NCBI GenBank assembly: GCA_958295535.1
Contig: OY282356.1
Span: forward strand, 1,945,614-2,009,613
From: Gemmatimonadota bacterium
Lineage (GTDB): Bacteria > Gemmatimonadota > Gemmatimonadetes > Palauibacterales > Palauibacteraceae
Direction: 5' to 3'
DNA length: 64,000 nt
Shown here: one piece after another, positions 1 through 51,675 of the stretch
How positions within the stretch are numbered: position 1 is the stretch's first letter
Layout of the letters: every line of letters begins with the position of its first letter
Notes under the pieces: generated by a model
The model's input: the letters and a program-made list of their open reading frames with translations, nothing else
Told to the model about the DNA's origin: nothing
Databases searched by the model: none
Program-made: the position numbers and the translations under genes

Positions 1-2252
1 CGGTCGGACATGGCTATGTGAAAGAAGTCGAGGGTGACGCTGAACGGGCCCCGCTCGAACACCGTCCCCAGGCCGATATTGACGGAGCGCTCCGGCTCCA
101 GAGGCACTCCTCCCCGCAGCTTGGCTACCGCGGATGTGGACGGAATCGTGCCGTTATTGACCAAGTCCATGAGCTCCCGGTCGTACTCCGTGGAAATGTT
201 GAAGGCGTTCTGCTGTCCTGGCGTCGGCGCTCTGAGGCCGGTGCTCAGGCTGCCCCGGACCGCCAACGTTCCGGAGATGCCGTAGCGCGCGGCAAACTTC
301 CCGTTCAGGGTCGCGCCGAAGTCCGGGTAGTTCTCGAAACGCAGCGCGCCGCCCGCCATCCAGCGGCCGTTCTCGGGGTCCCCCATCTCGGCATCGGCAT
401 AGGCGGCGTAGTTGGAGCGGTGCCAACCGCCGGCCGCGATGGGGCTGAAGCCCGGAAAGCCGTTCGACCCCGCGCTGAAACCCTGCGCGGCGTAGGGTCC
501 GATCCGCCACGAAGTCTCCTCGCCCAAGCCGATCTTGTAGTACTCGTCCCGCCACTCGGCGCCGCCCGCGACATTCAACATGTCGCTGACGGCGTAGCTC
601 ATGTCCAGATTCAAGTTGACTTCGCGCTGGAGATTCAGGCCCGGATCGAACCTGGTCGGCGTGTCGAGCCCCAGCGAAGCATTGACGGTGTTGTAGATGT
701 AGTAGTCCACCCGGTTGAGGCCGACGGTGGCGCTGGCATCCCAGACGAAGCCGCCGCTGGTTTCTCCCGTGAATCCGGCGACCGCCGCGGCATCGGTGGC
801 GTCGCCGCCGAACTGCGGGGTGAAGCCGGCCGGGAACCTCTCCTGGAAGGTGAAACAGTTGGGATCCGCGAAGACCCGTGCCAGGGCATCTTGGTCCGGC
901 AGCCCGTCGACGACTCGCACTACGGGACAGCCCGCCGATCCGTCGACGACCCCGTCCTGGGCGTCGAGAGCATCTCCGATCAGGAGCGTCTGGCCGCCAT
1001 CGGCGCTGAACACCGCTGCCCGCGTGTTGGGATTGCGGAAGTAGAAGCCGCCCTCCACCGTCTCGCGGTTGTAGTTGGCGGTCGCGTAGAGCCGCGCGCT
1101 GCCGCCCAGGGCGTAGCCGAAGTTCCCCCAGAGCTTCAAGTCGCCGTCGACGGAGGGAGCGCCCCAGATCTGGACGGGGTCCGGCACCATCGTATTCCCC
1201 GCTGCCACCAGAATCTTGGCGTCGTTCCGCTGCACGCTTCGGCTGGAGGCGGCGGAGGCGCCGTACTCGGCGCTGAGATTCGCGAAGCCGGCGGCCCCCA
1301 GGGGCAGCCCGACATTGCCCGAGAAGGTGTAGCCGTCGCCGCCACCATCGGCGAAACGCCCTCCCCTCGCCTCGAAGGAGCCGCCGGAGCGGGCGTTCTT
1401 GAGCCGGAAGTTGATGACGCCCGCGATCGCATCGGAGCCGTACTGGGCCGAGGCCCCGTCCCGCAGAACCTCGACTTGGCGCAGCGCAATAGCCGGAATC
1501 GATGATATGTCCGCGCCCTGGGCGCCGTCCGACACGCCGTTGCCGATCCAGGTGATCACGGAGCCGCGGTGGCGACGCTTCCCGTTGATGAGCACCAGCG
1601 TGTGGTCGGGAGCGAGCCCGCGCATATTCGCCGGACGCACTATCCGGGCCGCATCGCCCGTGGCCTGCGGGTTGACATTGTAGGAAGGGATCACGGTGCG
1701 CAGGAGGTCGTTGAGATCGGTGTCGCCCTGATCGAGGAAGTCCGCCACCGGGATGGCGTCGATCGGCACCATCGACTCGGTGACCGTTCGCGACTGGCCG
1801 CGGCTCCCCACGGCGACCAAGCCCTCCAGCCGGATGCCCGTTCTAGAGACGAGAATGTCGAGCCGGGTGGTCTCGCCGCCGGCGATCGCGACTTCCCTGT
1901 ACTCCGCTTCGTATCCGATGAGCGTGACTTCCACCCGGTGGGTTCCCGCCGGGATGCCGTCTATCTCGTACGCGCCGCCGGGGCCGCTTGCGGCCACCAA
2001 GTCGGCGCCCTCGACCTCAAGACGGGCGTTGGCCACGCCCGCCCCGCTCGTCGCGTCGCGGACGACTCCTTCCAGCCGGCCGCCCTGGGCCTGAAGCGCT
2101 GGCGCTGCTGCGGCCGGTGCGATCGCTGCTGCGGCCAGCGGAGTGGCTGCGGCCAGCGGAGTCGCAACCGCCGGGGCCAACAGGGCGGTCAACCCGGCTA
2201 ACGCCGCCAAGCGCCCGACGCCCCGCGCAAGGAGGTTGGCGGCAAGGCGCAC
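1..2252 (-). CDS. TonB-dependent outer-membrane receptor with N-terminal carboxypeptidase-regulatory-like domain (partial; C-terminus runs off window start)
   Basis: The minus-strand frame is open from 2252 to 1; it is not in the ORF track because it runs off the edge. A GTG at 2252 opens a signal-like N-terminus (VRLAANLLARGVGRLAALAGLTALLAPAVA). Next comes a CarbopepD_reg-type segment (GRLEGVVRDATSGAGVANARLEVEG...GGAYEIDGIPAGTHRVEVTLIGYEAEYREVAIAGGETTRL). A TonB plug motif (PDHTLVLINGKRRHRGS) and barrel-like segments (ANYNRETVEGGFYFRNPNT; NIGLGTVFERGPFSVTLDFFHI) follow. The plus-strand ORFs 18..1505 and 1569..2201 are antisense artefacts of this gene. Confidence 0.8.
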   Translation of the reverse strand, partial: MRLAANLLARGVGRLAALAGLTALLAPAVATPLAAATPLAAAAIAPAAAAPALQAQGGRLEGVVRDATSGAGVANARLEVEGADLVAASGPGGAYEIDGIPAGTHRVEVTLIGYEAEYREVAIAGGETTRLDILVSRTGIRLEGLVAVGSRGQSRTVTESMVPIDAIPVADFLDQGDTDLNDLLRTVIPSYNVNPQATGDAARIVRPANMRGLAPDHTLVLINGKRRHRGSVITWIGNGVSDGAQGADISSIPAIALRQVEVLRDGASAQYGSDAIAGVINFRLKNARSGGSFEARGGRFADGGGDGYTFSGNVGLPLGAAGFANLSAEYGASAASSRSVQRNDAKILVAAGNTMVPDPVQIWGAPSVDGDLKLWGNFGYALGGSARLYATANYNRETVEGGFYFRNPNTRAAVFSADGGQTLLIGDALDAQDGVVDGSAGCPVVRVVDGLPDQDALARVFADPNCFTFQERFPAGFTPQFGGDATDAAAVAGFTGETSGGFVWDASATVGLNRVDYYIYNTVNASLGLDTPTRFDPGLNLQREVNLNLDMSYAVSDMLNVAGGAEWRDEYYKIGLGEETSWRIGPYAAQGFSAGSNGFPGFSPIAAGGWHRSNYAAYADAEMGDPENGRWMAGGALRFENYPDFGATLNGKFAARYGISGTLAVRGSLSTGLRAPTPGQQNAFNISTEYDRELMDLVNNGTIPSTSAVAKLRGGVPLEPERSVNIGLGTVFERGPFSVTLDFFHIAMSD

Positions 2253-2568
2253 AAAACCTATCGGTGATTCAGCGACACTTCGCAATTGCCTAACATTCCT
2301 TCCTGGACTACACCGACGGCTATCGCCATCCGTCCGGCGGCGAACCGGGCGCTGCGGCGGCGTCAAAGGCTGGCCGCTGACATGCAGGTGGCCCAATCAC
2401 CGGCCCCGGTCGGCCCCACGCCGCAGGTCACCCTCCCGCGCCAGGATCGAGGGGCCGCGCCCCGGACGGCCAGTGCGGCCAGCGGCAGGTTGAATCGGCT
2501 CGAACTTGCGTTGGCGGGACTGCGGGAAGCCATTATTGCCTTGGAGGTCGCGCACCTGGCCCCTCGTC

Positions 2569-4992
2569 CTACTCGTCGTCCTGCTCATCGATCCCGGCCT
2601 CGCCTTCCCACACCCGGCCGGCGCCCCGCACATACTGCCCGGTTCTGATTCGGCCGACAGCGTAAGCCGGAAGCCCGCGTACTGCAAGGCACTTTCCGCC
2701 AGCCCTGACGCCGTGAGTCTCGAACGCGAAATCGAGGTTCTGGAAACCGTGCCGCCTGCTCCAGTGGGGAAGGTCGCTCTCGCGGACCGGCACCACATGC
2801 AGGAAGAAGATCTTGTCGATATCGTCCGAGTCGCATGGCTCCTTCACGTAGATCAGCTCGTCGCCTCTATAATGCTCGTCGCCTCTGTAATAGACATCGA
2901 ACACCGAGCGAATCACCGGATCGCTCGTCTCCTCGATGCGCCGGGTGCGTCCCCCCTCGCGCTCGCTCTCCCAGACCGGGTTCAACTCGCTATCGTAGAT
3001 GTGCCACGACGACATGTGAGCGCCGGCATCCAGCTCCCGATACGGTCGCCCGTTCTGGAAGAGTTCAGCCACGCCGTGGGCAAATGCCATAAGCGGGTAG
3101 CCTTCGGTGAGTCTGGAACGTTTATCGGTACGCAGGACCGTATAGTATGTCCGCCCGGTTTCTTCAGGCGGGACCGTGTGCACCATGTACTCGCCACCGG
3201 AAACTCTGGGCAGAAAGTCGTGAAAATAGATAACTATATTAATCGCGCGTTCGTCACGGTCGGCGTTAATCACCCGGACATAGTGGCCGCGGTCTTGAAG
3301 GCGGGCGAGCTCGTCCAGGAGCTCCGCCTCCGTGTGACGGACGCTATGCTGGACAACGGTCTGGAGCAGGAAGTTGTAGTAGTTGCAGCACACGAAGAAC
3401 GCGACGAAGCCGACCACCGTCCATTTCGCCAGCGCGCCATGCCAAAGTCGCCCCCTTCTCCCGACGGCGAACTCCATTGCGAATTTGGCGGAGAACGCCA
3501 TCAGCGTGGTGAAGACGGGGACAAGGAAGTACCAGTAGCGCAGCGCATGTACCCAGGAAGTGCAAGCGATGAGATACAGGCTCGCGAACTGCCCCAGGAG
3601 GAACAGCACGAAAATGAGCTCGTCATCGAATTGGCGTCTGAGCGCTCTGGCAATGACGGACACTAGCAGCAGCACGGAGAGAATGGCGAAACCGGCGGCG
3701 ATGACAGGGGAAGTGTAAATCTGCAACAAACTTCCCGCAATCCATGCCGCATTGTACGCCAACAGCTCCGGGGTCAAGGGCTGCGTACCGTAACCGCCGA
3801 GTTCCCGGGCTGCGTTTACCCTGAACAGCGTGTGAAAGAAGACCAGGGCTAGCGGCAGGCCGCCCACCGCTTTCCACCGACTCGCTCCTTTCAAGGCGTG
3901 GACGATCCTCGTGAACGGACCGTCCTGCCTGCCGCTCCGGGGGCATTGCCGGCGCATCGCCCCTATCAGGAGCATGGCATAGTAGCTGACCAGCAGCCAG
4001 AGCGCGGCGGCAACGTTAACCTCCTTGGACCAGACAAGGCCGAAGAATCCCAGATAGAACAGGAGGCACGTCGGCAGCGTCGAGCGAAGCTCCCGCCGTC
4101 CGCCCCCATGCACGAGCATGCGCGCCATCATCCAGGTGCAAAGGCCGAGGAAGAAAACGGTATTGACTTCCTGGGGATACAATCGCGCGGCCGGCTGGTT
4201 GGGGAAGAATATCCAGCAGTACGCCAGCACGGACAGCGGCAGCAGACGGACGAGCCGCGATGTCGTGCCATGTTCCGCCTGCTCGTCTCGGGCGAAGCGG
4301 AGGAAGGCGGCCGCGAAGGCGAATACGGCGCCAAAGTGCACCAGCCACCGCATTAGGTGATAAAGCCAGGGAGTCGGCCCGAAGACTTCCCGAGCAAGCG
4401 AGTTGTAGAAGAGCCAGAAGGGCCGGTATCTCGAGCTGTCCTGACGACTATCAGCCCACGGACAGGTCGCTCTTATCGGGCCAATGGCGGGCGTCCGGAC
4501 CGCGTAACTGCCGCCGTCCTTCTCGTAGTGCGTGTAGGCGCGCAGGAACCTGCCCCGGTCGTGACCGGTCAAGGTGTACTTCGAGTCCGGAGCGCCCTCG
4601 ACTTCTGTCCAGGCGGCATCGTCGGGCGCGTCGGCATCGTCGGACTTGGCGCTGGCCCGCTGCCAACGCCAAGTCCGCGCCGGGGCGTCATCGACATCGT
4701 GGAGCCGGTCGTCGACCAAGTAGGCGACGATGGCTGCTTGCTCGTCCCCGGCTTCCCTGATGCCGGCCATGCCGAACCCAGGCGGCGACGCATCCGGTAC
4801 GACAGCGAAGGGACGGTCGAACGCGCAAGGCGCATCCCAGTCGACATTCCAGTCGCCGTAGTCGTCCACCAGGGCGAAGGGCGTGGTCAGAGAGTAGTAG
4901 AGCGCCGGCAGAAACAACACGACGGGGATCAACAGGAACAGGACTTTCGAGAGCGGGCCCCGGAGCGGGCCGCGCAAGGTCGGTTCACGCAT
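2569..4992 (-). CDS. Large polytopic membrane protein (807 aa) carrying both shared modules of this locus (WxW module plus conserved C-terminal domain); glycosyltransferase/polymerase-like, function unknown
   Basis: One N-terminal TM helix (VLFLLIPVVLFLPALYY) precedes a periplasmic segment with the W-x-W-Q-R-G module (ARTWRWQRASAKSDD...AAWTEVEGAPDSKYTLTGHDRGRFLRAYTHYEKDGG). About ten hydrophobic helices follow. The soluble C-terminal region ends in the shared CTD (SVFDVYY..LIYVKEPCDSDDIDKIFFLHVVPVRESDLPHWSRRHGFQNLDFAFETHG..KCLAVRGLPAYAVGRIRTGQY). Confidence 0.6.
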   Translation of the reverse strand: MREPTLRGPLRGPLSKVLFLLIPVVLFLPALYYSLTTPFALVDDYGDWNVDWDAPCAFDRPFAVVPDASPPGFGMAGIREAGDEQAAIVAYLVDDRLHDVDDAPARTWRWQRASAKSDDADAPDDAAWTEVEGAPDSKYTLTGHDRGRFLRAYTHYEKDGGSYAVRTPAIGPIRATCPWADSRQDSSRYRPFWLFYNSLAREVFGPTPWLYHLMRWLVHFGAVFAFAAAFLRFARDEQAEHGTTSRLVRLLPLSVLAYCWIFFPNQPAARLYPQEVNTVFFLGLCTWMMARMLVHGGGRRELRSTLPTCLLFYLGFFGLVWSKEVNVAAALWLLVSYYAMLLIGAMRRQCPRSGRQDGPFTRIVHALKGASRWKAVGGLPLALVFFHTLFRVNAARELGGYGTQPLTPELLAYNAAWIAGSLLQIYTSPVIAAGFAILSVLLLVSVIARALRRQFDDELIFVLFLLGQFASLYLIACTSWVHALRYWYFLVPVFTTLMAFSAKFAMEFAVGRRGRLWHGALAKWTVVGFVAFFVCCNYYNFLLQTVVQHSVRHTEAELLDELARLQDRGHYVRVINADRDERAINIVIYFHDFLPRVSGGEYMVHTVPPEETGRTYYTVLRTDKRSRLTEGYPLMAFAHGVAELFQNGRPYRELDAGAHMSSWHIYDSELNPVWESEREGGRTRRIEETSDPVIRSVFDVYYRGDEHYRGDELIYVKEPCDSDDIDKIFFLHVVPVRESDLPHWSRRHGFQNLDFAFETHGVRAGGKCLAVRGLPAYAVGRIRTGQYVRGAGRVWEGEAGIDEQDDE

Positions 4993-5424
4993 CTATGGCT
5001 GTCCTCCCGAGCGGTGAGCGGGACGAGAAAACCGGCTCCGCACCTGCCGACGATCTCTGTCCGCCGGGGATGCCGCCGCCGCGTCGGGCGGCGGCTTCCC
5101 GGAGGCATCCATATATTGTACAATGGGCTGCGCCGTTAGCCCCCGCCGCAACGGCAGGCCATGGAATCCGGCAGGCCTGCCGCCCCGATGGCGTGGCGCG
5201 CCGACGGTGGCACCTGATCCGATCGCCGAGCGCCATCCGGGACAGGCACGATAAGCTATGACAAAACGCACTGCCAACGGCGCACCGCTCGGCTGGCCGA
5301 TCGATCTCCACCGGCGCCGGTTCCGCATCCGCCGGGCCGATGGCGAACCGGCGCCGCCCCGCCCGGTCTAGCGCATGGACCTGGAGCCGGACTCGGCGCT
5401 TGATCCTGGACCAAGTCCGCGCCC

Positions 5425-6789
5425 TTGAAGTCGCTCCTGGCAAAGCTGCTCCCGGCATCCGCAAAGCTGCTCCCGGCATCCGACCGCCGCGCGGCCCGGC
5501 AGACCCTTTGGCTGGGCGCGATAACGGCGGTTCAGGCGCTGGCCGGCATAGTTCAACTGACGTTCTCGGCCCGGATTCTTGGGCCCGAAGGCTTCGGGAT
5601 CCTGGCCATCGTCATTGCCGCAGCCTCGCTCGTCTTCGGAATCGCCACGATGCCGGGCGAAGAGATCATCACGACCTACGTAACGCGAAGCGTAGCCCGA
5701 GGAAAACCGGAGGAGGCGGGAAGAGTGTTGCGGCTCGCCATGGGATCCGCGTTGGGCATGAGGCTGCTCTGCTACGGACTGATTGCGGCTGGAACGCACA
5801 TAGCCGCCGGACTCCTCGGCCTCGTCGACAACGTCTACGTGCTGCCAATGCTCCTTTACAGCGTCACGGGCGTTTTTACGTCCGTCTCCGGGGAAAGCGT
5901 CGCGGTGCTGAGACTAGCCGACCGGTTGCAGCTAGGCTTCGCGGTCATGGTGGCGAGCGCGCTGTCCGGGGCGGTGGTGCTCGTGTGGGCCTGGTCCGCC
6001 GGCGGCGGACTTCTCATGGTCATCATGTCGTCCGTCGCCAAGACCGCCGTGCTTGGAGCGGGGATGGCACTGTCCGTGGCGCTGTCGGCCGGGCGGGCGG
6101 GCGTGCCGGGATTTCTGCGCTCCCTGTCCGTCAAGGTTCCGCGAGACATCCGCAGATTTCAAATTGCGTCCTTCGGCAGGTCCTCCGTAGAGGCGCTGCA
6201 TGTCCACGCCGACGCGCTGCTGCTAGCAGGATTGACCGGCACGGTCCAAGTCGGGCTGTACCGTGCGGCCCGTTACATCATAGACGCCACGAAGTTGCCA
6301 TTCCTCGCTCTTGCCCAGGCGCTGCAGGTCGAATACAGCAGGCATTGGTTCGGGGCCGGCGGCGCAGGCGTCAGGAATCTGTCGCGTCGCTTCACGGCGC
6401 TGGCGGTGGCAGCGGGCGCAGCGGGATACGGACTGCTTCTTGCATTCCACCAACCCATCATTCGCATCCTGCTGGGCCCGGACTTCGCGGAGGCGGCTAG
6501 CCCTCTGCTGTTCATGCTTCCCGGCGCATTCATCTTTACCGGCATCGCGGCGCTATATGTCGTGCCTACGGCGACAGGCCGGGCCACTCCGCACTTGGTA
6601 GCCATGTCGGCCGCCGTGGCGGCGCAGGCTATCGTCATCGTATTGCTGGCGCCGAGCCACGGCGCAAACGGAGCTGCGTGGGCCGCCACTGCCCATTCCC
6701 TGGTCTTTGCCGCGACCATGATTCCGTTCGTAGTCCCGACACTCCGCCAAACCCGCAAGATCTCTCCTGCCACCGAGACATGTCGCTAA
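5425..6789 (+). CDS. Wzx-like polysaccharide flippase (MOP/polysaccharide biosynthesis protein family), copy 1
   Basis: 454-aa ORF that is multi-TM throughout. Its N-terminal region (SDRRAARQTLWLGAITAVQALAGIVQLTFSARILGPEGFGILAIVIAAASL) is paralogous to 22324..23637 (SDRLVVRQTSWMGAITAVRLLGGLAQLTIAARILGPEGFGVLAVIIAVAAL). This is the typical Wzx/RfbX-type architecture. The start is uncertain: the first 19 codons contain a 21-bp perfect tandem repeat, so the true start may be near 5480. Confidence 0.65.
   Translation: MKSLLAKLLPASAKLLPASDRRAARQTLWLGAITAVQALAGIVQLTFSARILGPEGFGILAIVIAAASLVFGIATMPGEEIITTYVTRSVARGKPEEAGRVLRLAMGSALGMRLLCYGLIAAGTHIAAGLLGLVDNVYVLPMLLYSVTGVFTSVSGESVAVLRLADRLQLGFAVMVASALSGAVVLVWAWSAGGGLLMVIMSSVAKTAVLGAGMALSVALSAGRAGVPGFLRSLSVKVPRDIRRFQIASFGRSSVEALHVHADALLLAGLTGTVQVGLYRAARYIIDATKLPFLALAQALQVEYSRHWFGAGGAGVRNLSRRFTALAVAAGAAGYGLLLAFHQPIIRILLGPDFAEAASPLLFMLPGAFIFTGIAALYVVPTATGRATPHLVAMSAAVAAQAIVIVLLAPSHGANGAAWAATAHSLVFAATMIPFVVPTLRQTRKISPATETCR
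5440..5481 (+). repeat. Perfect 21-bp tandem duplication (gcaaagctgctcccggcatcc x2) at the 5' end / leader of the Wzx-like gene
   Basis: Two identical adjacent 21-mers at 5440-5460 and 5461-5481. In the listed ORF frame they encode AKLLPAS AKLLPAS. Confidence 0.9.
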
Positions 6790-8627
6790 CGACGACTTCG
6801 CCACGCGGCACCTTTGTCCAGTCGATCCGGGAACGACTCGGCAAGACTAGGCTGGCGCCGTGGATGCTGTGCTACATCCTCCTGGCCGAAATCGCCTTTC
6901 AGTTCCTGCTGAAGACTTGGTCGGAAGTCCTCGAAATCGTTCTATTCGTAGGAATCCTGGCGGCCTTTCTCGTATCGAAGCTGGCAGTCGAAGGTCCCAG
7001 GGGCTTGATGCGCATATTGGTCGGCACATGGACCCAACGGCTCGCCGCGCTGTTCGTGCTGGCGCTGATGTCGTCGTTCCTGTGGGGCGACCATTCGAGC
7101 CGCTCGATCTTTGCGTTGCTAAGGCTTCCCACCTACCTCGTGATAATCGCCATAGTGGCGGATGCCGTCCGGGAAGAGAAAAGAATTCCGTCCTTTTCCT
7201 GGATCATACTTGGCGGCATCGCTTTCATATTCATGCTGACATTGGCCGAATACTACTTCGGCAGCGACTTGTTAGGGCTGAAATGCGCGGACGTAGAGAG
7301 ATGCATGACGTGGAAGGAAGAAGGCTGGCATTGGAACGGGCTGCTCGCAACTCAACAGATGCCGGACCCTTTTTACGGCCGGGAAAATCTGCGCGCGACC
7401 GTAATGGCCCAGGCCTATGGAATCAGCAGATTGGCGCTGTTCGCCATACTGGCCTACGCTTTGGGCCTCGGCCTTATGGTAGCCTCTCGACGATGGGCCT
7501 CCAAGCTGATCGCCGGGAGCCTGCTGACCATAATTGTTTTTGGCGTCTTTGCGAGCGGATCCCGCTCGGCCACCCTGGCCATTCCCATCGTGTTCGCATC
7601 TTTCATCACGTTGAGCGCGGTTTCGCTGCCCCGAGCGATGGTTCCATTGACGGTTTCAAACATAGCGGTGCTAGCGGGCGCTTTTCTAATGTTGCTGGTT
7701 CTGCCCACTGGCACGACGGCATTCGACCGCATCCTCGGCAGGCATCTGGACAGGTTCGAATGGGACTTTGCGGACTACGCCCCCATTGATGCGCCGCCTG
7801 GAGTGAAGATCGTCGGGGCCGGAATCAGGAACGAGGACATAGCCATCATCGCTTACCTGATCGATGACCGGCACCACCGGGATGACGACGATCCGGTCCA
7901 GGATTGGCAGTGGGAGCGGGGCCAAGCCCGATCCGACGATGCCGCCGGACCCGACTCGGACGATGCCGCCGGACCCGGCGACGATACCGAGTCCGTCTAC
8001 TATGCAAGGCCCGACAACGATACCTGGACCGAAGTCGAGGGCGCCCTGGACCGTAGATACGCCTTGACCGGCCACGACATCGGCAAGTTCCTGCGCGGCT
8101 ACACGTTCTACGAAAAGAACGGCGACACCTACTTGGCCGTTACGCCCGCGATTGGCCCGATACGAGGACTGTCCGGGCTCCTTCGTCTGGATGAATGGAG
8201 ATTCAGGAATTGGAAGCTGGCCCTGGAGCTGTTCGCGGACAACCCGTTGGGAGGCAGCGGATACAGGACTTTCCAGCCGGAAGCGCGTGCGAGATTCCCG
8301 GACACCAAGACAATCGGCGTCCACAGCGGCTACCTGAAGATACTGTCAGAATCGGGATTGCTGGGAGCGCTCCCGTTACTGGCGGTCCTGGCGTGCGCTG
8401 TATGGATGATGTGGCGGTTCGCGCCGGGCGCGTCTGCCGAGGCGACCCTGTGGCGGAACGCCTTTCTGAGCGCGTTCGCCATGATGCTGGCGGTAGACCT
8501 GATCGACACTCATTCCAGCGACCGCTACTACTGGATCGTATTGTCCTTTGCCGCGGTTGCCGAGATCTGGACGCGTCAAGATAGAGTCCGGACCGCGGGA
8601 GAGACGGCGACGAGCTGCAAGCCATGA
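6780..8627 (+). CDS. O-antigen ligase/polymerase family (Wzy_C domain) membrane protein with a large periplasmic loop carrying the WxW module
   Basis: ATG at 6780 (MSLTTTSPRGTF), just past the upstream gene stop at 6789; the listed ORF start at 6678 is an in-frame overlap. Polytopic membrane protein with a GSRSA motif and the Wzy_C signature ...IGVHSGYLKILSESGLLGALP. Its periplasmic loop contains IAIIAYLIDDRHH...DWQWERGQARSDD...TWTEVEGALDRRYALTGHDIGKFLRGYTFYEKNGDTYLAVTPAIGPI, which is homologous to the N-terminal module of 2569..4992. A partial paralog lies at 63324..64000. Confidence 0.7.
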   Translation: MSLTTTSPRGTFVQSIRERLGKTRLAPWMLCYILLAEIAFQFLLKTWSEVLEIVLFVGILAAFLVSKLAVEGPRGLMRILVGTWTQRLAALFVLALMSSFLWGDHSSRSIFALLRLPTYLVIIAIVADAVREEKRIPSFSWIILGGIAFIFMLTLAEYYFGSDLLGLKCADVERCMTWKEEGWHWNGLLATQQMPDPFYGRENLRATVMAQAYGISRLALFAILAYALGLGLMVASRRWASKLIAGSLLTIIVFGVFASGSRSATLAIPIVFASFITLSAVSLPRAMVPLTVSNIAVLAGAFLMLLVLPTGTTAFDRILGRHLDRFEWDFADYAPIDAPPGVKIVGAGIRNEDIAIIAYLIDDRHHRDDDDPVQDWQWERGQARSDDAAGPDSDDAAGPGDDTESVYYARPDNDTWTEVEGALDRRYALTGHDIGKFLRGYTFYEKNGDTYLAVTPAIGPIRGLSGLLRLDEWRFRNWKLALELFADNPLGGSGYRTFQPEARARFPDTKTIGVHSGYLKILSESGLLGALPLLAVLACAVWMMWRFAPGASAEATLWRNAFLSAFAMMLAVDLIDTHSSDRYYWIVLSFAAVAEIWTRQDRVRTAGETATSCKP

Positions 8628-11526: not shown

Positions 11527-12424
11527 GCGGCGACCCCGCGCAAAGAGTCGCCCCCCGCGCAAAGAGTTGAGAATACTGAAAAGGCTAGTCCGCGATATCC
11601 TCCCGGCGCGGGCGCACGGCGCGCTCCGCCGGGCGGTGCGCGCCGTGCAGCTCGACCGAGCGCCTCCGATGGCGGTGGACGTTGCCCCGCTTCCGATGGC
11701 GGCGGAGATTTCATTCTCGGACTTGCTCTGCGGCAACGGCGCGGGCGCCGGATGGGAAGAGGCGAAATCTTCGATAGATGAAGTCTTCGAATACGCGCCG
11801 TGGGCCCACGCCACCGATCCCGAGAGCTGCCGGGCGATCTACCACCTGATTCGCCGTCTTCAACCGCGCTCCGTTCTGGAAATCGGCACCAACCGCGGCG
11901 CATCCACCTTATACTGCGCCATGGCGATGCGGGAGTATCGGAAGGCAGACCGCCCTCCTCCCCGTCTCGTCACCGTGGACTTGTTCGACGTCAACGACCT
12001 TGCCGCCGCCGAGGCCAAACGATACCGAATCTCCACTCGGCCACGGGATATGCTGGCCCGGCTGGACTGTGCCGACATGGTCGAGTTTTCCATCGCCCGG
12101 TCCACGGACTATCTTGGTGGCTGCGAGGCGGAGTTCGATTTCATTTTCCTGGATTACAGCCCCGTCGCGGATGTCGCCTACCGGGACATCGCGCTGGCAA
12201 CAAGGGCTCTGCGCCCGGGCGGACAGCTGTTGGTTCATTCCTACTTTCCGGACACGAAACCGCTGGGAACGGCCGAGCGCGTCAACTCCGACTCCTTCTT
12301 CGCCGTGCGCCGTCTGCGCCGGGAAGGCGCTCGCTTGGTCGCGTTGCCCCTGGGCGCGCTGCCCTGGCGGCGGGAGCAGGGCGGGTCGAACCTTACCAGT
12401 CTGGCCCTCCTGGCGAGGGAATGA
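11507..12424 (+). CDS. Class I SAM-dependent methyltransferase
   Basis: SAM-binding motif I (RSVLEIGTNRGASTLYCAMAM), an acidic loop (LVTVDLFD) and a post-II region (FDFIFLDYSP). The start is ambiguous: 11507 overlaps the gme end by 20 nt, and an alternative start is MAVDV near 11669. The stop overlaps the next gene start (ATGA). Confidence 0.6.
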   Translation: MPSRTSRRRPRAKSRPPRKELRILKRLVRDILPARAHGALRRAVRAVQLDRAPPMAVDVAPLPMAAEISFSDLLCGNGAGAGWEEAKSSIDEVFEYAPWAHATDPESCRAIYHLIRRLQPRSVLEIGTNRGASTLYCAMAMREYRKADRPPPRLVTVDLFDVNDLAAAEAKRYRISTRPRDMLARLDCADMVEFSIARSTDYLGGCEAEFDFIFLDYSPVADVAYRDIALATRALRPGGQLLVHSYFPDTKPLGTAERVNSDSFFAVRRLRREGARLVALPLGALPWRREQGGSNLTSLALLARE

Positions 12425-14043
12425 GCAACGGCGCACCGCCCTCGGGAACGCATGACATGGCCTACTTGACACGGGAGACTACGGAAATGCGGCAGTCCGA
12501 AGCGTCTCCCGCTCCCCTCCGCAAGCGGATCATGATAGTCGATCCGCCTTTCAAGCGTCTCTACCACGACAATGCCTCGCTGGTGAAGTTCCCCCTGGCG
12601 CTTGGCTATCTCTCGGGGGCGGTCCTGAAGTGGACGGATTGGGAGGTCCAGGCCTACAACGCCGACTTCAATCCGCATAGAAAAGCCATCTCGATCGACA
12701 ACGTGACCCGCATCAAGGAAGGAATGGACCGCTACCTGCGGACGCTGGAAGACTCGTCGGCGCCCATATGGGCAGAAATACGTTCGGCGATCACGGAGTT
12801 CGATCCGGGCATCGTCGGCATAAGCTCCAAGACGCAGAACTTTCCGTCCGCGATGAGGGTTGCGCGAATCGCCAAGGAGCATAATCCCGGCACGCTGGTC
12901 GTCTTGGGCGGCCCCCACGCCACCTTGTCCACTACGAGCGCGTTGGATTGCCCTGATATCGATGTGGCGGTGCTGGGCGAAGGCGAGATGACGCTGGTCG
13001 AGCTGATCGACGTCTGGGAAAAAGGGGCATCGCTGGGCGATGTGGCGGGACTGGCCTACCGCCAGGACGGTCGCAAGGCGTTCACGCCGCCGCGCGCCAA
13101 CATTCCCGATCTCGACGAACTGCCTTACCCGGCGGAAGCCGCGCCGCAAGTTCTTCGGGACTACGAAAGCTATCCGGCCAATGCCTTCGGATACGTCTTT
13201 TCGGCTCGCGGCTGCCCTTACAGTTGCACCTTCTGCGAGTCCAAAGCCATCTGGACGCAAAGAACCCGCTGGCGCTCGCCGGAAAACGTGGTGGGGGAAC
13301 TCAAGCTATTGATGGCGCGGGGCGTCCGGTACGTCTACTTCGACGATGACACCTTCGGCATCCACCCCCGCTACATCAAGGAACTGTGCGGTCTGATCGA
13401 AACCGAGTGCCGCGGACTCAAATGGGGTTGCGAGATAACCGTGGGCGTCGTCAAGGAGCGATCGGTCGAATACATGAGCCGTTCCCGCTGCGTGCGAGTC
13501 AATATCGGCATCGAGTCGGGCAACAACCGGATACTGCGGGCCGTCAAGAAGGGGCACACCATCGAGAAGGCGTATCCCGCCGTGGATCTTTGCCGACGGA
13601 AGGGTATTGAAGTCGGCGCCTTCTTCATGATCGGTTTCCCGTGGGAAACGGAAGATACGTTCCGAGACACGCTGACGGCCATCAAGAAGATTAACGCCGA
13701 CAACATCATGCTGAGCATTTTCACCCCCTATCCCGGCTCCGAGCTGTTCCAGGTGTGCAAGGAGCTAGGGGTGGTGGACGACGACTTCGACATCACGATT
13801 TACAATCACCAGAGTCCGGAGAACTGTTTCACCGCCTTTATCCTCCCGGAGCGTTTCAAGGAGCTGGTCCGGGAGGCGGCCTCTGTCGTCGGACGCAAGA
13901 ACAGCCGCGGCCGGCGGCGGCGGGTAGCCCGGATGCTGCGCCAGCGCGACTTCTATCGCACGGGGCAGATGGCAAGGCAGTTCCTCCTCACCCGCTTGGC
14001 GTGGTACTTGAACGGGCTGAAGCTGGTCTTCTCTAGGCGCTAG
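12421..14043 (+). CDS. B12-binding domain-containing radical SAM protein (class B radical SAM, methyltransferase-like)
   Basis: ATG at 12421 (MSNGAPPSG...); the listed ORF 11800..14043 includes an out-of-frame upstream extension. The N-terminal B12-binding-like domain (IMIVDPPF...GIVGISSKTQNFPSAMRVARIAKEHNPGTLVVLGGPHATL) is followed by a radical SAM CxxxCxxC motif (SARGCPYSCTFCES) and a TIM-barrel region. Confidence 0.8.
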   Translation: MSNGAPPSGTHDMAYLTRETTEMRQSEASPAPLRKRIMIVDPPFKRLYHDNASLVKFPLALGYLSGAVLKWTDWEVQAYNADFNPHRKAISIDNVTRIKEGMDRYLRTLEDSSAPIWAEIRSAITEFDPGIVGISSKTQNFPSAMRVARIAKEHNPGTLVVLGGPHATLSTTSALDCPDIDVAVLGEGEMTLVELIDVWEKGASLGDVAGLAYRQDGRKAFTPPRANIPDLDELPYPAEAAPQVLRDYESYPANAFGYVFSARGCPYSCTFCESKAIWTQRTRWRSPENVVGELKLLMARGVRYVYFDDDTFGIHPRYIKELCGLIETECRGLKWGCEITVGVVKERSVEYMSRSRCVRVNIGIESGNNRILRAVKKGHTIEKAYPAVDLCRRKGIEVGAFFMIGFPWETEDTFRDTLTAIKKINADNIMLSIFTPYPGSELFQVCKELGVVDDDFDITIYNHQSPENCFTAFILPERFKELVREAASVVGRKNSRGRRRRVARMLRQRDFYRTGQMARQFLLTRLAWYLNGLKLVFSRR

Positions 14044-14050
14044 CCCCTGC

Positions 14051-14950
14051 ATGGACATCTTGCGTTTTCCGACCCGCTATGCGCCCCGGCTGGTCAAGAA
14101 AGCGTACCGGCGCCTCTTCGGCGACGAGAAGTGGTTCCTGGTCGTGAACGCCGGCCGGCCCGTGGCCGATTCGGGAATCGACGGACGGGCGCCCGCGGCG
14201 CAGTTCAAAGTGCATCACGCTCCGCCCGGTCGTTTCTGGGCCGACCCCTTTCCCATAGTCGTCGACGGCCAGGTTTGGGTGTTCTTCGAGGATTACTCTT
14301 TTGCGTCGAAGAAGGCCGCTATCGCCTGCGCCCCGGTATCCGCCGACGGCGACCTGGGCGAAGTTGCCACCGCGTTGAAATGTTCGTATCATCTCTCCTA
14401 CCCGTTCGTCTTCGAGCGCCGGGGCCGGCTCTATCTGATTCCCGACACCTGGGACGAGAACCGCATCGACCTGTGGTGCTGCCGCCGATTCCCCGGCGAT
14501 TGGACCCGAGAACGGACGCTGCTGGACGGAGTGAGCATGAGCGACCCGACCCTGCACCGGCAGGACGGGAAGCTGTGGCTGTTCGGCACAGTGAGCGAAG
14601 CGAGGGCGAGGGCCAATGCCGAACTGCACATTTACATGGCCGATGCCCTGGACGGGGCGTGGCGGCCCCACCCGGCGAATCCGGTGGTGTCCGACCGCAG
14701 GCGGGCCCGTCCGGCGGGTCGGCTGTTCTTGCGGGACGGCCACCTGATTCGTCCGGGGCAGGATTGCAGCGGAGGCTACGGACGGGCGGTTGTCCTCAAC
14801 CGGGTCGACGCGCTGGACGAGCGCGCCTATGCCGAAACCCCCATCGGGCGCATTGACGGCTCCGGACTGCCCGGCAACCGGGGCACGCACACGATCAACT
14901 GCGCGGGCGGCCTCGAATTCCTCGACGGACGAGTCCTGCACCGGCATTGA
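14051..14950 (+). CDS. Hypothetical protein (299 aa), possibly a beta-propeller / glycoside-hydrolase-like fold; function unknown
   Basis: ORF with good coding character (WADPFPIVVDGQVWVFFEDY; LHIYMADALDGAWRPHPANPVV). Its last ~150 nt are duplicated at 17798..17945 as part of the 3-kb tandem repeat. Confidence 0.5.
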   Translation: MDILRFPTRYAPRLVKKAYRRLFGDEKWFLVVNAGRPVADSGIDGRAPAAQFKVHHAPPGRFWADPFPIVVDGQVWVFFEDYSFASKKAAIACAPVSADGDLGEVATALKCSYHLSYPFVFERRGRLYLIPDTWDENRIDLWCCRRFPGDWTRERTLLDGVSMSDPTLHRQDGKLWLFGTVSEARARANAELHIYMADALDGAWRPHPANPVVSDRRRARPAGRLFLRDGHLIRPGQDCSGGYGRAVVLNRVDALDERAYAETPIGRIDGSGLPGNRGTHTINCAGGLEFLDGRVLHRH

Positions 14951-16449
14951 GCACATTGAGACCTGACCGAAAGACGGCATTCAAGTTCGTCTTCGCGACA
15001 TTGCTCGTAGCGGCGGCCTTTTCCGCTACATATACGTCATCCGCGGCGGCCTTTTCCGAGTCGGACCTGAGAATCATTCTAAAACTCGGCGGAACGGTTA
15101 ACGCCGTCCTTTTGCTCGGCGCGCTGTTCTTCCTGCGCTCTGGAGTCATAGCGAACGCTGTCCTGTCGCTGATTGTGCTGGCCAGCGTTGCGACGGCGTA
15201 CATCATCCATACCGATCTCTATCTGACCGGAAACAGGGCCGTCCTCATTGCGCTATGCGCCGGATCCGGCGCAGGGCTGTTCGTCGCCTTCCGTGTCATC
15301 GACGAGCAGCGCTGGGGAGGCATTGCGCTCTCGGCGGCGGCGGCGCTCGGGCTTGGGATCATTGCCAGCGGGCACCGGAGGCCGACGATGTCCCCCGCAC
15401 CCGCAACGGTGGATACGACGTACATTCGGGACATCTCCTTCCGGGAGACGCCAAACCTGTATTTCGTTTCCTTCGATGCCCTGGCCCCACGCGCATTGCT
15501 CAAGAAATACCTTGGCTTGGAAACCACAAAATTTCATGATCTGTTCGATAATTACTTTCGCCGCTTCCCCAATTTCTTCGCCAACTCCGTCCCCACTATT
15601 GCTTCTCTCAACACTGTCTTGGCGCTGGACGTGGATGCGTATACCGCACAACGAAAGGAGTTGAATGCAGGGGGAGACAACTCTGAGCCGTCCTTGTTCT
15701 CTGGTCAATATCCGTCGAATCTCCTTGCAATCCTCCATGGAAACGGCTACGAGACAACATCAATCTATGTGGACAACTTTTTCGGGGACGAAAAGGGTCA
15801 ATATATCAACAACTACATCACGATCCAGAACAACACCGTCTGTAATAGACTGGACGCCAGCATATCGGATTTTGCTTTCTGGGGACATTGCCGGATCGGA
15901 AGAGGTGAGATGGATATGGTCGCCGAGCGGATCACCAGGGTGAACGCCAACGACAAGCCTCAATTCGTGATAGCTTACCTGTCCGTACCGACACATACTG
16001 GTAGCTCGTTCCGGTATGATGATGCGGAACAGCTCGAGGCATTCAGACGTGCCTACATCAACAATAGCGAACGAGCAGCTCGCTACCTGGATTTAGTCGT
16101 CCGGCACCTGGAAGAAAATGACCCTGGCGCCATCTTGCTCGTGTTCGGCGACCACGGCCCGTTCCTGTCTCGGGGGCTGCAGTTCGCGGACGATCCGGAG
16201 TTCGTCTTCCAGGACAATTACGGCATTCTGGGCGGCGTCTATCCCCGTGACACGTGCGCTCGGTGGTTCGACGAAGCATCGTCCCAGGATTACATGACGA
16301 TTCTGGACGCCGTTCACGCTCTGCTTCGCTGCCTGTCCGGCGGTGAAAGCCCACTCATCAAGCCGCACAGATATACGCGACCCGAGTACGGGCCTATCCC
16401 CCGGCACGATAGAGCTTACTACAGGGACTTTCTCTATGATTCTCGATGA
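14947..16449 (+). CDS. Membrane-anchored alkaline-phosphatase-superfamily (sulfatase-fold) phosphotransferase-like protein, copy 1
   Basis: TTG start overlapping the upstream stop. Four to five N-terminal TM helices precede a soluble domain with sulfatase/LTA-synthase-like motifs (FVSFDALAPRAL; LLVFGDHGPFLSRG). There is no Cys/Ser-x-Pro-x-Arg formylglycine motif, so it is more likely a phospho-substituent transferase/hydrolase than a true sulfatase. Confidence 0.7.
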   Translation: MSTLRPDRKTAFKFVFATLLVAAAFSATYTSSAAAFSESDLRIILKLGGTVNAVLLLGALFFLRSGVIANAVLSLIVLASVATAYIIHTDLYLTGNRAVLIALCAGSGAGLFVAFRVIDEQRWGGIALSAAAALGLGIIASGHRRPTMSPAPATVDTTYIRDISFRETPNLYFVSFDALAPRALLKKYLGLETTKFHDLFDNYFRRFPNFFANSVPTIASLNTVLALDVDAYTAQRKELNAGGDNSEPSLFSGQYPSNLLAILHGNGYETTSIYVDNFFGDEKGQYINNYITIQNNTVCNRLDASISDFAFWGHCRIGRGEMDMVAERITRVNANDKPQFVIAYLSVPTHTGSSFRYDDAEQLEAFRRAYINNSERAARYLDLVVRHLEENDPGAILLVFGDHGPFLSRGLQFADDPEFVFQDNYGILGGVYPRDTCARWFDEASSQDYMTILDAVHALLRCLSGGESPLIKPHRYTRPEYGPIPRHDRAYYRDFLYDSR

Positions 16450-16720: not shown

Positions 16721-17797
16721 CGGCGGGTCGTTCAAGGACCCGGCCGGACAAGTGTACCGGGTCATGCGGGACACCGGAGAGGCGAGCATCGTTCGCGGGT
16801 TGAATCCATCCGCCGCCAGAATAGTGGAGAACCTGCTTGCCGAGCCCTTTTTCCAGGACTTGGTCGATAACGGTCAGGTCGTGGCGACGCAGCTGCTCCA
16901 CCCGGAACTCCCCCACGCTCGGCACGTGATGAAGGAGGGCTGGAGCGCCGCCGTGGAGCATGAGGTGGTGGACTTCGTGACTTGGCCCTACGAGTGGCCG
17001 TTCTCGATGCTCAAGGACGCGGCGCTGCTGCGCAATTGCGGATACTGGAGACCGGAGCCAGAAACGGCTGGCTGCTCAAGGACGCGACGTCGTTCAACGT
17101 GCAATGGATGGGCGTACGCCCGGTATTCATCGACATACCGTCGTTCATCCCTTGGGAAGAGGGCGAATACTGGCGGGGGTATCGTCAATTCTGCGCGACC
17201 TTCCTGACACCGTTGCTGCTGACGGCGCATCTGGGCATCCCGTTCCACCCGCTGCTCCGCTCGCGCCTCGACGGCATCCCGCCAGAGGAAGCTAGTCGGT
17301 ACTTTCGTGGGCTGAGGCGTTTCAAGCGCGGAGTCCTGTCGCATGTCTGGCTTCCCGCCAAGGCCGAGCGCAGCGGCCCCCGATCGACGCGCCCACATCG
17401 ACGACAGCCGAAGACGATGCTGTTCGCGCTGTGGGACAGCCTGCGGCGGCTCATCGGCGGGTTGTCCAGTGGGCGGGCCCGTTCCACTTGGTCGCAATAC
17501 GCCAGGAATCATTCCTACGACGCAGCCGACTTCGAACGGAAGAAGGACTTCGTGCTACGGCACACCGCGGTGCGCGACCCTGGGCTGACTTGGGACCTGG
17601 GCGCGAATACCGGCGCGTTCGCGCGTATCGCCGCCGAGCACTCGGGGGTGGTCGCTGCCGTGGACGCGGATCACGATGCCGTCGATGATCTTTATCGCGA
17701 AGTGCGACAGAACGGACCGGAGAATGTCATTCCGCTGGTGATGGATCTGGCGAACCTCTCGCCGGGACAGGATTGGGCGGGTCGCGAGCGTCCGGAA
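16668..17797 (+). pseudogene. Two-domain methyltransferase-like gene, copy 1: frameshifted and 3'-truncated by the tandem-duplication junction
   Basis: Relative to the intact copy (19727..21130), copy 1 has a 2-bp insertion (ctgctgcgcaattgcgg vs ctgctgcaattgcgg, ~17027). This splits it into ORFs 16668..17207 and 16982..17854. It ends at the duplication junction (~17797) without its C-terminal third. Confidence 0.6.
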
Positions 17798-17958
17798 CCG
17801 GGTCGACGCGCTGGACGAGCGCGCCTACGCCGAAACCCCCATCGGGCGCATTGACGGCTCGGGACTGCCCGGCAACCGGGGCACGCACACGATCAACTGC
17901 GCGGGCGGCCTCGAATTCCTCGACGGACGAGTCCTGCACCGACGACAATAAACCGGCT

Positions 17959-19473
17959 TTGAGCGCATTGAGACCTGACCGAAAGACCGCATTCAAGTTC
18001 GTCTTCGCGACATTGCTCGTAGCGGTGGCCTTTGCCGCTACATATACGTCATCCGCAGCGGCCTTTTCCGAGTCGGACCTGAGAAGCATTCTAATGCTCG
18101 GCGGGACGGTTAACACCGTCCTTTTGCTCGGCGCGCTGTTCTTCCTGCGCTCTGGAGTCATAGCGAACGCTGTCCTGTCGCTGATTGTGCTGGCCAGCGT
18201 TGCGACGGCGTACATCATCCAGACCGATCTCTATCTGACCGGAAACGGGGCCGTCCTCATTGCGCTATGCGCCGGATCCGGCGCAGGGCTGTTCGTCGCC
18301 TTCCGTGTCATCGACGAGCAGCGCTGGGGAGGCATTGCGCTCTCGGCGGCGGCGTTGCTCGGGCTTGGGATTATTGCCAGCGGGCACCGGAGGCCGACGA
18401 TGTCCCCCGCACCCGCAACCGTGGATACGACGTACATTCGGGACATCTCCTTCCGGGAGACGCCAAACCTGTATTTCGTTTCCTTCGATGCCCTGGTCCC
18501 ACGCGCATTGCTCAAGAAATACCTTGGCTTGGAAACCACAAGATTTCATGATCTGTTCGATAATTACTTTCGCCGTTTCCCCAATTTCTTCGCCAACTCC
18601 GTCCCCACTATTGCTTCTCTCAACACTGTCTTGGCGCTGGACGTGGATGCGTATACCGCACAACGAAAGGAGTTGAATGCAGGGGGAGACAACCCTGAAC
18701 CGTCCTTATTCTCTGGTCAAGACCCGTCGAATCTCCTTGCAATCCTCCACGGAAACGGCTACGAGACAACATCAATCTATATGGACAACTTTTTCGGAGA
18801 CGAAAAGGGTCAATATATCAACAACTACATCACGATCCAGAACAACACCGTCTGTAATAGACTGGACGCCAGCATACGGGATTTTGCTTTCTGGGGATAT
18901 TGCCGGTTCGGAAGAACTGCGTGGTTCACTGCAATGGATATGGTCGCCGAGCGGATCACCAGGGTGAACGCCAACGACAAGCCTCAATTCGTGATAGCTT
19001 ACCTGTATGCACCGGGACATACTGATAACTCATTCCGGTATTATGATGCGGAAGAGCTCGAGGTATTCAGACGCGCCTACGTCAACAATAGCGAACGAGC
19101 AGCTCGCTACCTAGCTTTAGTCGTCCGGCACCTGCAAGAAAATGACCCTGGCGCCATCTTGCTCGTGTTCGGCGACCACGGCCCGTACCTGTCTCGGGGG
19201 CTGCAATTCGAGGACGATCCGGATTTCGTCTTCCAGGACAAGTACGGCATTCTGGGCGGCGTCTATCCCCGGGATGTGTGCGTTAGGTGGTTCGACGAAG
19301 CATCGTCCCAGGATTACATGACGATTCTGGACGCCGTTCACGCTCTGCTTCGCTGCCTGTCCGGCGGTGAAAGCCCGCTCATCAAGCCGCACAGATATAC
19401 GCGACCCGAGTACGGGCCGATCCCCCGGCACTATAGAGCTTACTACAGGGACTTTCTCTATGATTCTCGATGA
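17959..19473 (+). CDS. Membrane-anchored alkaline-phosphatase-superfamily (sulfatase-fold) phosphotransferase-like protein, copy 2
   Basis: TTG 17959 is equivalent to the copy-1 start (LSALRPDRKTAFKF...). Full-length paralog (LLVFGDHGPYLSRG). The listed ORF 17773..19473 includes read-through of the duplicated upstream fragment. Confidence 0.7.
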   Translation: MSALRPDRKTAFKFVFATLLVAVAFAATYTSSAAAFSESDLRSILMLGGTVNTVLLLGALFFLRSGVIANAVLSLIVLASVATAYIIQTDLYLTGNGAVLIALCAGSGAGLFVAFRVIDEQRWGGIALSAAALLGLGIIASGHRRPTMSPAPATVDTTYIRDISFRETPNLYFVSFDALVPRALLKKYLGLETTRFHDLFDNYFRRFPNFFANSVPTIASLNTVLALDVDAYTAQRKELNAGGDNPEPSLFSGQDPSNLLAILHGNGYETTSIYMDNFFGDEKGQYINNYITIQNNTVCNRLDASIRDFAFWGYCRFGRTAWFTAMDMVAERITRVNANDKPQFVIAYLYAPGHTDNSFRYYDAEELEVFRRAYVNNSERAARYLALVVRHLQENDPGAILLVFGDHGPYLSRGLQFEDDPDFVFQDKYGILGGVYPRDVCVRWFDEASSQDYMTILDAVHALLRCLSGGESPLIKPHRYTRPEYGPIPRHYRAYYRDFLYDSR

Positions 19474-51415: not shown

Positions 51416-51675
51416 CTAGGCCGATAACGAAATTGTAGGCCCCATGGTGAGCAGATGATTAAACGTCATGCCGTACATGGCCATCACGACAACCCATCCG
51501 ACGACTGAATCTCTGCCCAGTGGCTTCGGCACAGTCCAAAGCAACCGCATCAAGAATAACAGAGACAGCAAGCACAATGCCAATGGAATAATACCCGCTT
51601 CGCCAGCCAGTATCAGGTACACGTTGTGGACTCCAGTCGGTTCCCCCCGGTTTCCGATGGGGGCGCCAACGCCAC
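51416..51675 (-). pseudogene. Fragment of a Wzy_C (O-antigen ligase/polymerase) paralog C-terminus
   Basis: GAPIGNRGEPTGVHNVYLILAGEAGIIPLALCLLSLLFLMRLLWTVPKPLGRDSVVGWVVVMAMYGMTFNHLLTMG is ~85% identical to the C-terminus of 63324..64000. It is fused at ~51675 to the 3' end of the FAD-oxidoreductase pseudogene. Confidence 0.5.

Follow-up and report, generated by a model that had tools for sequence, protein, structure and literature searches.

The locus examined here raises three questions: what kind of domain recurs in its membrane proteins, how the copies came to their hosts, and what they might do there. The window, by which we mean the whole 64,000-nucleotide stretch analyzed (Gemmatimonadota bacterium assembly GCA_958295535.1, contig OY282356.1, positions 1,945,614 to 2,009,613), is a large surface-polysaccharide locus with two Wzx-like flippases, GT2 and GT4 enzymes, several GT-C-like proteins, and radical-SAM and sulfatase-like genes. 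An earlier sequence-only reading had pointed to a module with W-x-W and LRAY anchors shared by five of its proteins: the Wzy-like wzy1 and a second, partial Wzy-like protein, the GT-C-like proteins gtc632 and gtc878, and an 807-amino-acid protein, p807. The module is very probably an immunoglobulin (Ig)-like beta-sandwich domain of the AIR9-A9/SCAB-Ig type, because its relatives pass Pfam thresholds and the fold models agree, and this assignment takes identity, fold and indel behavior jointly.

A hidden Markov model (HMM) built from the five copies and run on every stop-to-stop segment in all six frames of the window recovered exactly five copies, with E-values from 1e-24 to 1e-36; the next match had an E-value of 0.16. 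All five peptides quoted in the sequence-only reading are encoded where it placed them, and the recurrence of the module is real. Its proposed length of ~70-90 amino acids was too short: the unit comprises ~110 amino acids, with ~25 upstream residues conserved as G-x-A-G-I-R...K-R-V-G-E. In p807, the core corresponds to residues 87-175 and the extended unit to residues 62-177. The partial Wzy-like copy consists of the C-terminal half only, because its gene runs off the window end. The same homologous domain does sit in different polytopic membrane scaffolds (polymerase-like, transferase-like, and unknown), although the five hosts amount to three scaffold classes rather than five, namely two Wzy_C members, two paralogous GT-C-like proteins, and p807. 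Coordinates are collected in Table 1.

The sequence-only reading had itself asked whether its matches would reduce to D/A/G-rich linkers once aligned. The W-x-W and LRAY anchors are retained after alignment, and the module is not a low-complexity linker. The acidic segments HRADDDP and RAD.R.DDA..PDD.TW are conserved across 24 subtype A copies (the subtype is defined below), and judged from this alignment the acidic stretches are conserved parts of the subtype and not linkers. The window wzy1 copy additionally has a private acidic stretch, GPDSDDAAGPGDDTESVYYARPDN, at ~7930..8010 on the plus strand, between the W-x-W and W-T-E-V strands, which is absent from every other aligned copy.

All-against-all BLASTP divided the copies into two groups: subtype A, comprising p807 and the two Wzy-like copies, and subtype B, comprising gtc632 and gtc878. 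The p807 and wzy1 sequences are 46 % identical over 165 amino acids (E 5e-28), and gtc632 and gtc878 are full-length paralogues with 39 % identity over 628 amino acids (E 9e-108). The pairwise link between the subtypes is weak (BLASTP E 7e-4 to 0.016), and leave-group-out HMM tests of A against B are marginal (E 3e-4 and 2e-3). Homology is made secure by intermediates and by profile-profile comparison, which join the groups: the gtc632 module matches Wzy-borne modules of other genomes (P0001 and P0007) with E-values of 6e-10 and 6e-11, and hhalign aligns the two subtypes over 63 columns with a probability of 98.3 % and an E-value of 1.6e-14. These comparisons establish A and B as homologous subtypes. 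Bootstraps of an 89-column core recover subtype A as a monophyletic group in 85 % of cases, and the two window GT-C copies branch outside it in a neighbor-joining tree. The partial Wzy module is 80 % identical to the module of P0115, a 580-amino-acid Wzy_C protein, and only ~55 % identical to that of p807.

An exhaustive HMMER search of a six-sequence module profile against 1.84 billion representative proteins returned 3047 proteins when cut at E ≤ 1e-3, of which 80 reach E ≤ 1e-30. The module is therefore not specific to this locus. Most of the matches are of giant size and have the domain in tandem many times over, with as many as 57 copies, and to judge from them the module type is a very common bacterial tandem-repeat domain. 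Only one protein came up when homologues of the subtype A region were sought with a word index, a search that badly under-reports the family compared with the exhaustive profile search. When a sample of the matches was scanned with Pfam, the repeats of P0029 reached 133.8 bits for IG_AIR9 (PF23197, cut-off 27.5), and P0007, a Wzy-borne subtype A copy, reached 34.0 bits for SCAB-Ig (PF16709, cut-off 27.6). Homologues found with the module profile thus pass Pfam thresholds, and the module belongs transitively to the Ig-like A9/SCAB-Ig group. The only Pfam hint from the window itself is a faint PDE12-like_N match of the gtc878 copy (E 0.13), and sequence searches of the PDB with the module (phmmer and profile) gave sub-threshold matches only, to PDE12 (4Z0V, E 0.23) and to an MHC chimera (E 5). 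The faint PDE12-like_N and 4Z0V matches point the same way as an A9/SCAB-type fold.

The signature W...W..., Y-x-P/T, D-x-G-x-x-L-R is common to the module, AIR9 A9 (PF23197), SCAB-Ig (PF16709; PDB 4DIX), and the PDE12 N-terminal domain (PF21171; PDB 4ZKF). These families have been described from eukaryotic cytoskeletal or mitochondrial proteins. Subtype A differs from A9/SCAB-Ig in that it ends in YEKDG...AIGPI, has a further strand upstream, and contains additional acidic segments that are conserved. The tandem Ig-like repeats of the giant bacterial surface proteins are homologous to the module and 35-44 % identical to the GT-C copies (E ~1e-10). The giant proteins, which are soluble or secreted, line up 5 to 57 copies head to tail, whereas the window has single copies embedded in enzymes. 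Our literature search on bacterial A9 domains found nothing relevant.

An AlphaFold2 (AF2) model of the p807 module from a 55-sequence alignment has a mean predicted local distance difference test (pLDDT) score of 83.7 and is composed mainly of beta-strands with one short helix. Foldseek returned two neighbors for this model, of A9/SCAB type (probability 0.99-1.00), and the same two were again the best matches for the inserted part of an independent full-length wzy1 model. As modeled, the module is a beta-sandwich closest to a solved member of the Ig-like A9/SCAB-Ig group. The fold models were made for subtype A (p807 and wzy1).

The insertion site is best seen in wzy1. Both Wzy-like proteins score above the 31.7-bit cut-off for Wzy_C (PF04932), wzy1 with 33.9 bits and the partial protein with 36.2 bits. 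The top Foldseek match of wzy1 is WaaL (7TPG, probability 1.00, TM-score 0.52 normalized to the target), and wzy1 has the WaaL-like polytopic fold, the large outward loop of which holds a conserved Arg and a conserved His. The module is inserted in this extracytoplasmic loop, with its beta-strands at residues 342-454 of the full-length AF2 model (mean pLDDT 70.4). Past the insert, the match to the Wzy_C profile picks up again at position 81, and an insert-free wzy1 orthologue matches positions 3-149 without a break. R474, H515, and E524, which do not vary among 39 family members, all lie after the insert, the end of which is ~10 residues ahead of the invariant Arg (R474) and ~50 ahead of the invariant His. 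From its sequence, wzy1 is a putative ligase/polymerase-type enzyme, and a Wzx-like flippase gene lies immediately upstream. It shares the Wzy_C threshold, the fold match, and the invariant Arg, His, and Glu with the WaaL/Wzy_C family (PF04932; 7TPG). Unlike in the described members, one Ig-like domain interrupts the profile near position 80 in the window, and up to seven do so in relatives; a full-text literature search found no description of a Wzy or WaaL protein with an Ig-like insert.

The large loop of WaaL-type proteins faces the periplasm, and the module should therefore face outward beside the active site. In the GT-C-like proteins, the module comes after the last predicted transmembrane segment (TM), and in p807 it lies in the first extracytoplasmic loop, after TM1 with its Arg/Lys-rich N-terminal flank; topology rules would place both outside. 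Together with the WaaL topology, they make an extracytoplasmic position of the module likely.

Comparison of orthologues indicates that the module comes and goes. In the wzy1 family, 17 clusters have the module in the loop, ~20 clusters (483-531 amino acids) lack an insert and match Wzy_C unbroken, and further clusters show a weak fn3-like match in the same loop instead. The fn3-like (PF00041) segment, again weak, replaces the A9-type module in P0310-P0315 and P0322, which are ~47-50 % identical to wzy1, and P0297-P0309 of the same family have the module plus a Pro/Glu-rich extension of 120-200 amino acids. A motif scan for subtype A, with one genome per GTDB species, found 20 loci, often several per genome, all in metagenome-assembled genomes (MAGs) titled 'uncultured Dehalococcoidia bacterium', a label that is that of the MAG record titles. 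The hosts fall into four classes. Orthologues of wzy1 have one copy, those of the partial Wzy-like gene have between one and four, and a third Wzy_C type (P0003/L010) has one to seven in tandem; in the fourth class, GT-C-like proteins, the module lies between the membrane domain and C-terminal domains that we call 'FFLH'. Wzy_C proteins as a whole carry 0 to 7 copies in the loop. Because orthologues have zero, one, or up to seven copies, or an fn3-like replacement, the module is not catalytic machinery; on these alignments it is an optional insert in every class examined and is dispensable for the host fold. In one wzy1 orthologue (L001 9009..10813, ENA ERZ19489001 contig_12), the gene is present as two ORFs of 327 and 270 amino acids, and the frame change falls exactly at the N-terminal boundary of the Ig module; either the gene is truly split where the domains join or the assembly is in error.

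Module-free relatives of the other hosts show the same behavior. The candidate GT-C-like glycosyltransferase gtc632 reaches 24.9 bits for PMT_2, just under the 26.1 cut-off, and gtc878 has no Pfam match. Against the NCBIfam LA_3751/3752 family, gtc632 has an E-value of 4.5e-11, and the NCBIfam subfamily matches score far below their cut-offs. In gtc878, the module has the membrane domain on one side and two C-terminal FFLH domains on the other. Two window genes, 56191..58173 and 52885..~54830, share 62-68 % identity with module-bearing GT-C-like proteins, from which they differ by a clean ~118-amino-acid indel; the former lacks the module where its 62-65 % identical relatives L005, L009, L012, and P0111 have one. 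The latter gene lies in a region of the minus strand (52882..56480) where the mechanically called open reading frames (ORFs) are composites; a 943-amino-acid ORF there overlaps a well-supported amine-oxidase gene (54852..56480), and the true GT-C-like start is near 54830.

For p807, a family search gave 204 matches at E ≤ 0.001, those listed being mostly ~690 amino acids long. Eight aligned homologues of ~690 amino acids lack the insert, with a gap exactly at the module, and among the listed relatives full-length query coverage was found only in p807's own cluster at ≥90 % identity. A protein 99 % identical to p807 is present on a 3.05-Mb ENA contig (ERZ19489113, s124.ptg000131l; a sister genome). 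In the p807 scaffold, TM1 is followed by an invariant YYSLTTPFALVDDY motif, and the C-terminal end bears an FFLH domain. The scaffold has no Pfam, NCBIfam, or PDB sequence match, and its family profile gave only noise against the PDB. The 'DD' motif after TM1 is GT-C-like in resemblance only, and the scaffold could not be assigned.

The origin of the copies differs between hosts. In the neighbor-joining tree, the copies group mainly by scaffold type and not by genome. In an extended 116-column alignment, the nearest partners of the p807 copy are Wzy1-type in 180 of 200 bootstraps (90 %), and the window wzy1 is its sister in 132 of 200 (66 %); the 89-column core gives a weak 57 % for a Wzy1 origin. 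An 'APPG..GAGIR' linker common to p807 and Wzy1-type proteins was seen only there, and the four best DNA matches of the p807 insert, besides the self-hit in the sister genome, are all Wzy1-type. Given the bootstraps, the common linker, and the DNA matches, the p807 insert is a copy from a Wzy1-type gene, and the source was plausibly the neighboring wzy1. The transfer is old, since the DNA identity of the p807 copy to wzy1 orthologues of other genomes (77 % over 263 nucleotides and 78.5 % over 200 nucleotides) is similar to that with its neighbor (79 % over 159 nucleotides).

What survives of the proposed domain shuffling within the locus is therefore a mobile insert, shuffled at the level of the lineage; a source inside the locus for all five copies does not. 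That one cassette was recently shuffled among all five genes is improbable. It would fit the ~1.8-kb distance between the p807 and wzy1 genes, the DNA identity of their modules, their common linker, and their sister relationship in two-thirds of the bootstraps, but the predominant clustering by scaffold across genomes and the equal closeness of p807 to foreign Wzy1 genes led us to reject recent duplication within the locus as a general explanation, and for four of the five copies it is largely refuted. The partial Wzy copy is far closer to that of P0115 than to that of p807. For the GT-C copies, the shuffling claim fails: gtc632 and gtc878 are paralogous over their whole length, so that the shared position of the module needs no shuffling, and their subtype lies outside the Wzy/p807 clade. 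A still simpler alternative, that the resemblance is a chance or compositional artifact of D/A/G-rich linkers in a high-GC genome, would draw on the acidic low-complexity stretches that the p807 and wzy1 copies do hold and on the marginal pairwise E-values between subtypes. We reject it as exceedingly improbable in view of the HMM E-values with nothing else matching in the window, the hhalign result, the confident fold model, the homologues by the thousand, and the conservation of the acidic segments themselves.

With regard to function, we propose that a tandem-repeat Ig domain has been recruited, in a lineage whose sequenced relatives bear the label uncultured Dehalococcoidia, as an optional extracytoplasmic accessory domain of enzymes acting on lipid-linked glycans. 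It is inserted in the large outward loop of Wzy_C proteins near the invariant Arg and His, placed after the membrane domain of GT-C-like proteins, and, copied from a Wzy1-type gene, inserted in loop 1 of p807. In each, it might keep a growing or acceptor polysaccharide, or the carrier of that polysaccharide, beside the active site. If the module binds the polymer, its presence in enzymes of one locus would reflect a shared polymer, as the sequence-only reading supposed. Beta-sandwich accessory domains on GT-C enzymes are already known, and AftD is one such enzyme with a domain of the carbohydrate-binding module (CBM) type. The Ig-like C-terminal CBM of the GT-C enzyme ORF12 (GT136, Citrobacter youngae) binds the unmodified acceptor O-polysaccharide and is dispensable for activity (PMC11127046), and EmbC's C-terminal domain binds acceptor arabinan, with mutants giving a shorter product (PMC3044687). 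In ORF12, EmbC, and AftD, the CBM is an extracytoplasmic beta-sandwich after the GT-C membrane domain, as in the window GT-C-like proteins, and the dispensability of the ORF12 CBM for catalysis parallels the presence and absence of the module. Genes for what looks like a matching donor pathway also lie beside gtc632. The likeness of the domains is one of architecture, and the ORF12 and EmbC CBMs are described only at the GT-C C-terminus (PMC11127046, PMC3044687), whereas the module also occurs in Wzy_C loops and in loop 1 of p807. By this analogy, binding of a glycan or acceptor is a tentative suggestion that falls somewhat short of probable. Taken as a whole, the recruited Ig-like accessory domain as a glycan-holding add-on is the explanation that, on balance and with modest confidence, we prefer.

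Several results weigh against it. The four full module peptides of the window reach no Pfam threshold, and all but one of them match no family at E ≤ 10; no CBM family matches the module sequences in the Pfam scan. The placement of the insert relative to the rest of the wzy1 model is of low confidence, with linkers below a pLDDT of 50. In the model, the family-wide conserved W, Y, D-x-G, and L-R look like Ig core and turn positions and not like a sugar face, and a role in spacing or docking would account no less well for tandem arrays, which reach seven copies, and for the fn3 replacement. In the main rival reading, the module would be a protein-protein docking or spacer domain that binds no sugar: in docking, Ig-Ig or Ig-partner contacts would join the Wzy-like, GT-C-like, and p807 proteins in one extracytoplasmic complex or to a layer of the cell envelope, and in spacing, tandem arrays would act as a stalk or ruler. 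The tandem arrays of the same domain in giant soluble proteins, the copy number of 1 to 7 in Wzy loops, the use of the same site by an fn3-like domain, and the structural look of the conserved residues all agree with such a role; the subtype A acidic segments (HRADDDP, DDA..PDD) could be a metal or partner site, and no Wzz-type chain-length regulator turned up among the scanned window ORFs. We nevertheless regard docking or spacing as rather unlikely, given that no partner was identified, that a single inserted Ig domain makes a poor spacer, and that GT-C enzymes with a beta-sandwich in this position bind acceptor glycan (PMC11127046, PMC3044687). A more far-reaching version seems quite improbable, in which subtype A would be a lineage-specific, possibly metal-dependent 'assembly code' adaptor uniting Wzy-like, GT-C-like, and p807-type enzymes on one nascent polymer, with Wzy-loop copy number (0 to 7) setting chain length or reach in place of a Wzz-type co-polymerase.

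The identity of the domain is ordinary; its architecture and distribution are new and experimentally tractable. An Ig-like insert in the Wzy_C catalytic loop appears to be undescribed, and so do the range of 0 to 7 copies, the exchange for an fn3-like domain, and the occurrence of the insert in GT-C-like and other scaffolds of the same locus. Natural pairs with and without the module exist, and the series of gains, losses, and copy numbers is unusually clear. Should the accessory domain bind the nascent polymer, it would offer a way into the question of how substrates are held by Wzy-type enzymes.

Table 1. Modules, host genes, and other features of the window (numbered from its first nucleotide)
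Feature	Position	Strand	Basis or remark
p807 (807 aa), polytopic membrane protein of unnamed family	2569..4992	-	ORF, family alignment
Ig-like module, subtype A, in p807	core 4468..4734, extended 4462..4809	-	translation, HMM match, AF2 model
wzy1, Wzy_C (O-antigen ligase/polymerase-like) membrane protein	6780..8627	+	Pfam Wzy_C
Ig-like module, subtype A, in wzy1	core 7839..8168, extended 7764..8174	+	translation, HMM match
gtc632, GT-C-like (PMT_2-like) membrane glycosyltransferase candidate	36033..37931	-	Pfam, NCBIfam
Ig-like module, subtype B, in gtc632 C-terminus	36054..36293	-	HMM match; residues ~547-626
gtc878, gtc632 paralogue with C-terminal extension	38528..41164	-	BLASTP; start possibly up to 41266
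Ig-like module, subtype B, in gtc878	39281..39511	-	translation, BLASTP, HMM match
Second Wzy_C protein (WzyP type), partial	63324..>64000	-	Pfam Wzy_C
Module, subtype A, C-terminal half, in second Wzy_C protein (WzyP type)	63846..63998	-	HMM match
GT-C-like paralogue without module	56191..58173	-	alignment to module-bearing relatives
Wzx-like flippase gene, directly before wzy1	5425..6789	+	identified in ORF scan
HAD-UbiA fusion	34532..36103	-	adjoins gtc632
FAD_binding_4 protein (DprE1-like)	33130..34422	-	near gtc632
SDR	30099..30845	-	near GT-C-like genes
FFLH domain in p807 C-terminus	2569..3100	-	shared sequence
FFLH domain, two copies in gtc878	38528..39200	-	shared sequence
FFLH domain at C-termini of four proteins	23877..25847, 30842..33133, 56191..58173, 52885..~54830	-	
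FFLH domain, further occurrence	60128..60808	-	
B12-binding radical-SAM protein and two sulfatase-fold (possibly LtaS-like) membrane proteins	11800..14043, 14947..16449, 17773..19473	+	
ORF of ~800 aa with CarboxypepD_reg, Plug, and TonB-dependent-receptor barrel domains	3..2396	-	runs off window start

Among the neighboring genes, the HAD-UbiA fusion, the end of which is overlapped by the gtc632 gene, the FAD_binding_4 protein, and the SDR together resemble the DprE1/E2-type pathway to a polyprenyl-phospho-pentofuranose donor that is known from 'three-component' systems and from mycobacterial arabinan (PMC11127046). The three-component extracytoplasmic pentofuranosylation system consists of a polyprenyl-phospho-pentose synthase, a flippase, and a GT-C enzyme with an optional C-terminal CBM (PMC11127046). 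In the window, HAD-UbiA adjoins the GT-C-like gtc632 with its C-terminal Ig-like domain, with the DprE1-like and SDR genes nearby, and the ORF scan identified no MATE flippase.

A second shared domain, FFLH, comprises ~110 amino acids with the pattern FDVY..L.Y.KEPC...FFLH..PVD..DLP..R..HGFDNLDF.F...G....G.C.A..LP.Y.I..I.TGQY. It has no Pfam match. No fewer than seven locus proteins have it, and homologues of p807 contain one to three repeats of it; presumably it is the first shared module of the sequence-only reading. We flag the large unnamed p807-like membrane family and the unnamed FFLH domain as possible parts of the same glycan machinery in a little-studied lineage. Elsewhere in the window, ORF 51416..52720 (minus strand) is a composite as well: its N-terminal 188 amino acids match an oxidase-like NCBIfam model, and residues 387-459 are a Wzy-like C-terminus. 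Dehalococcoidia are usually regarded as lacking an outer membrane, and a TonB-dependent receptor such as the one that runs off the window start would be unexpected there.

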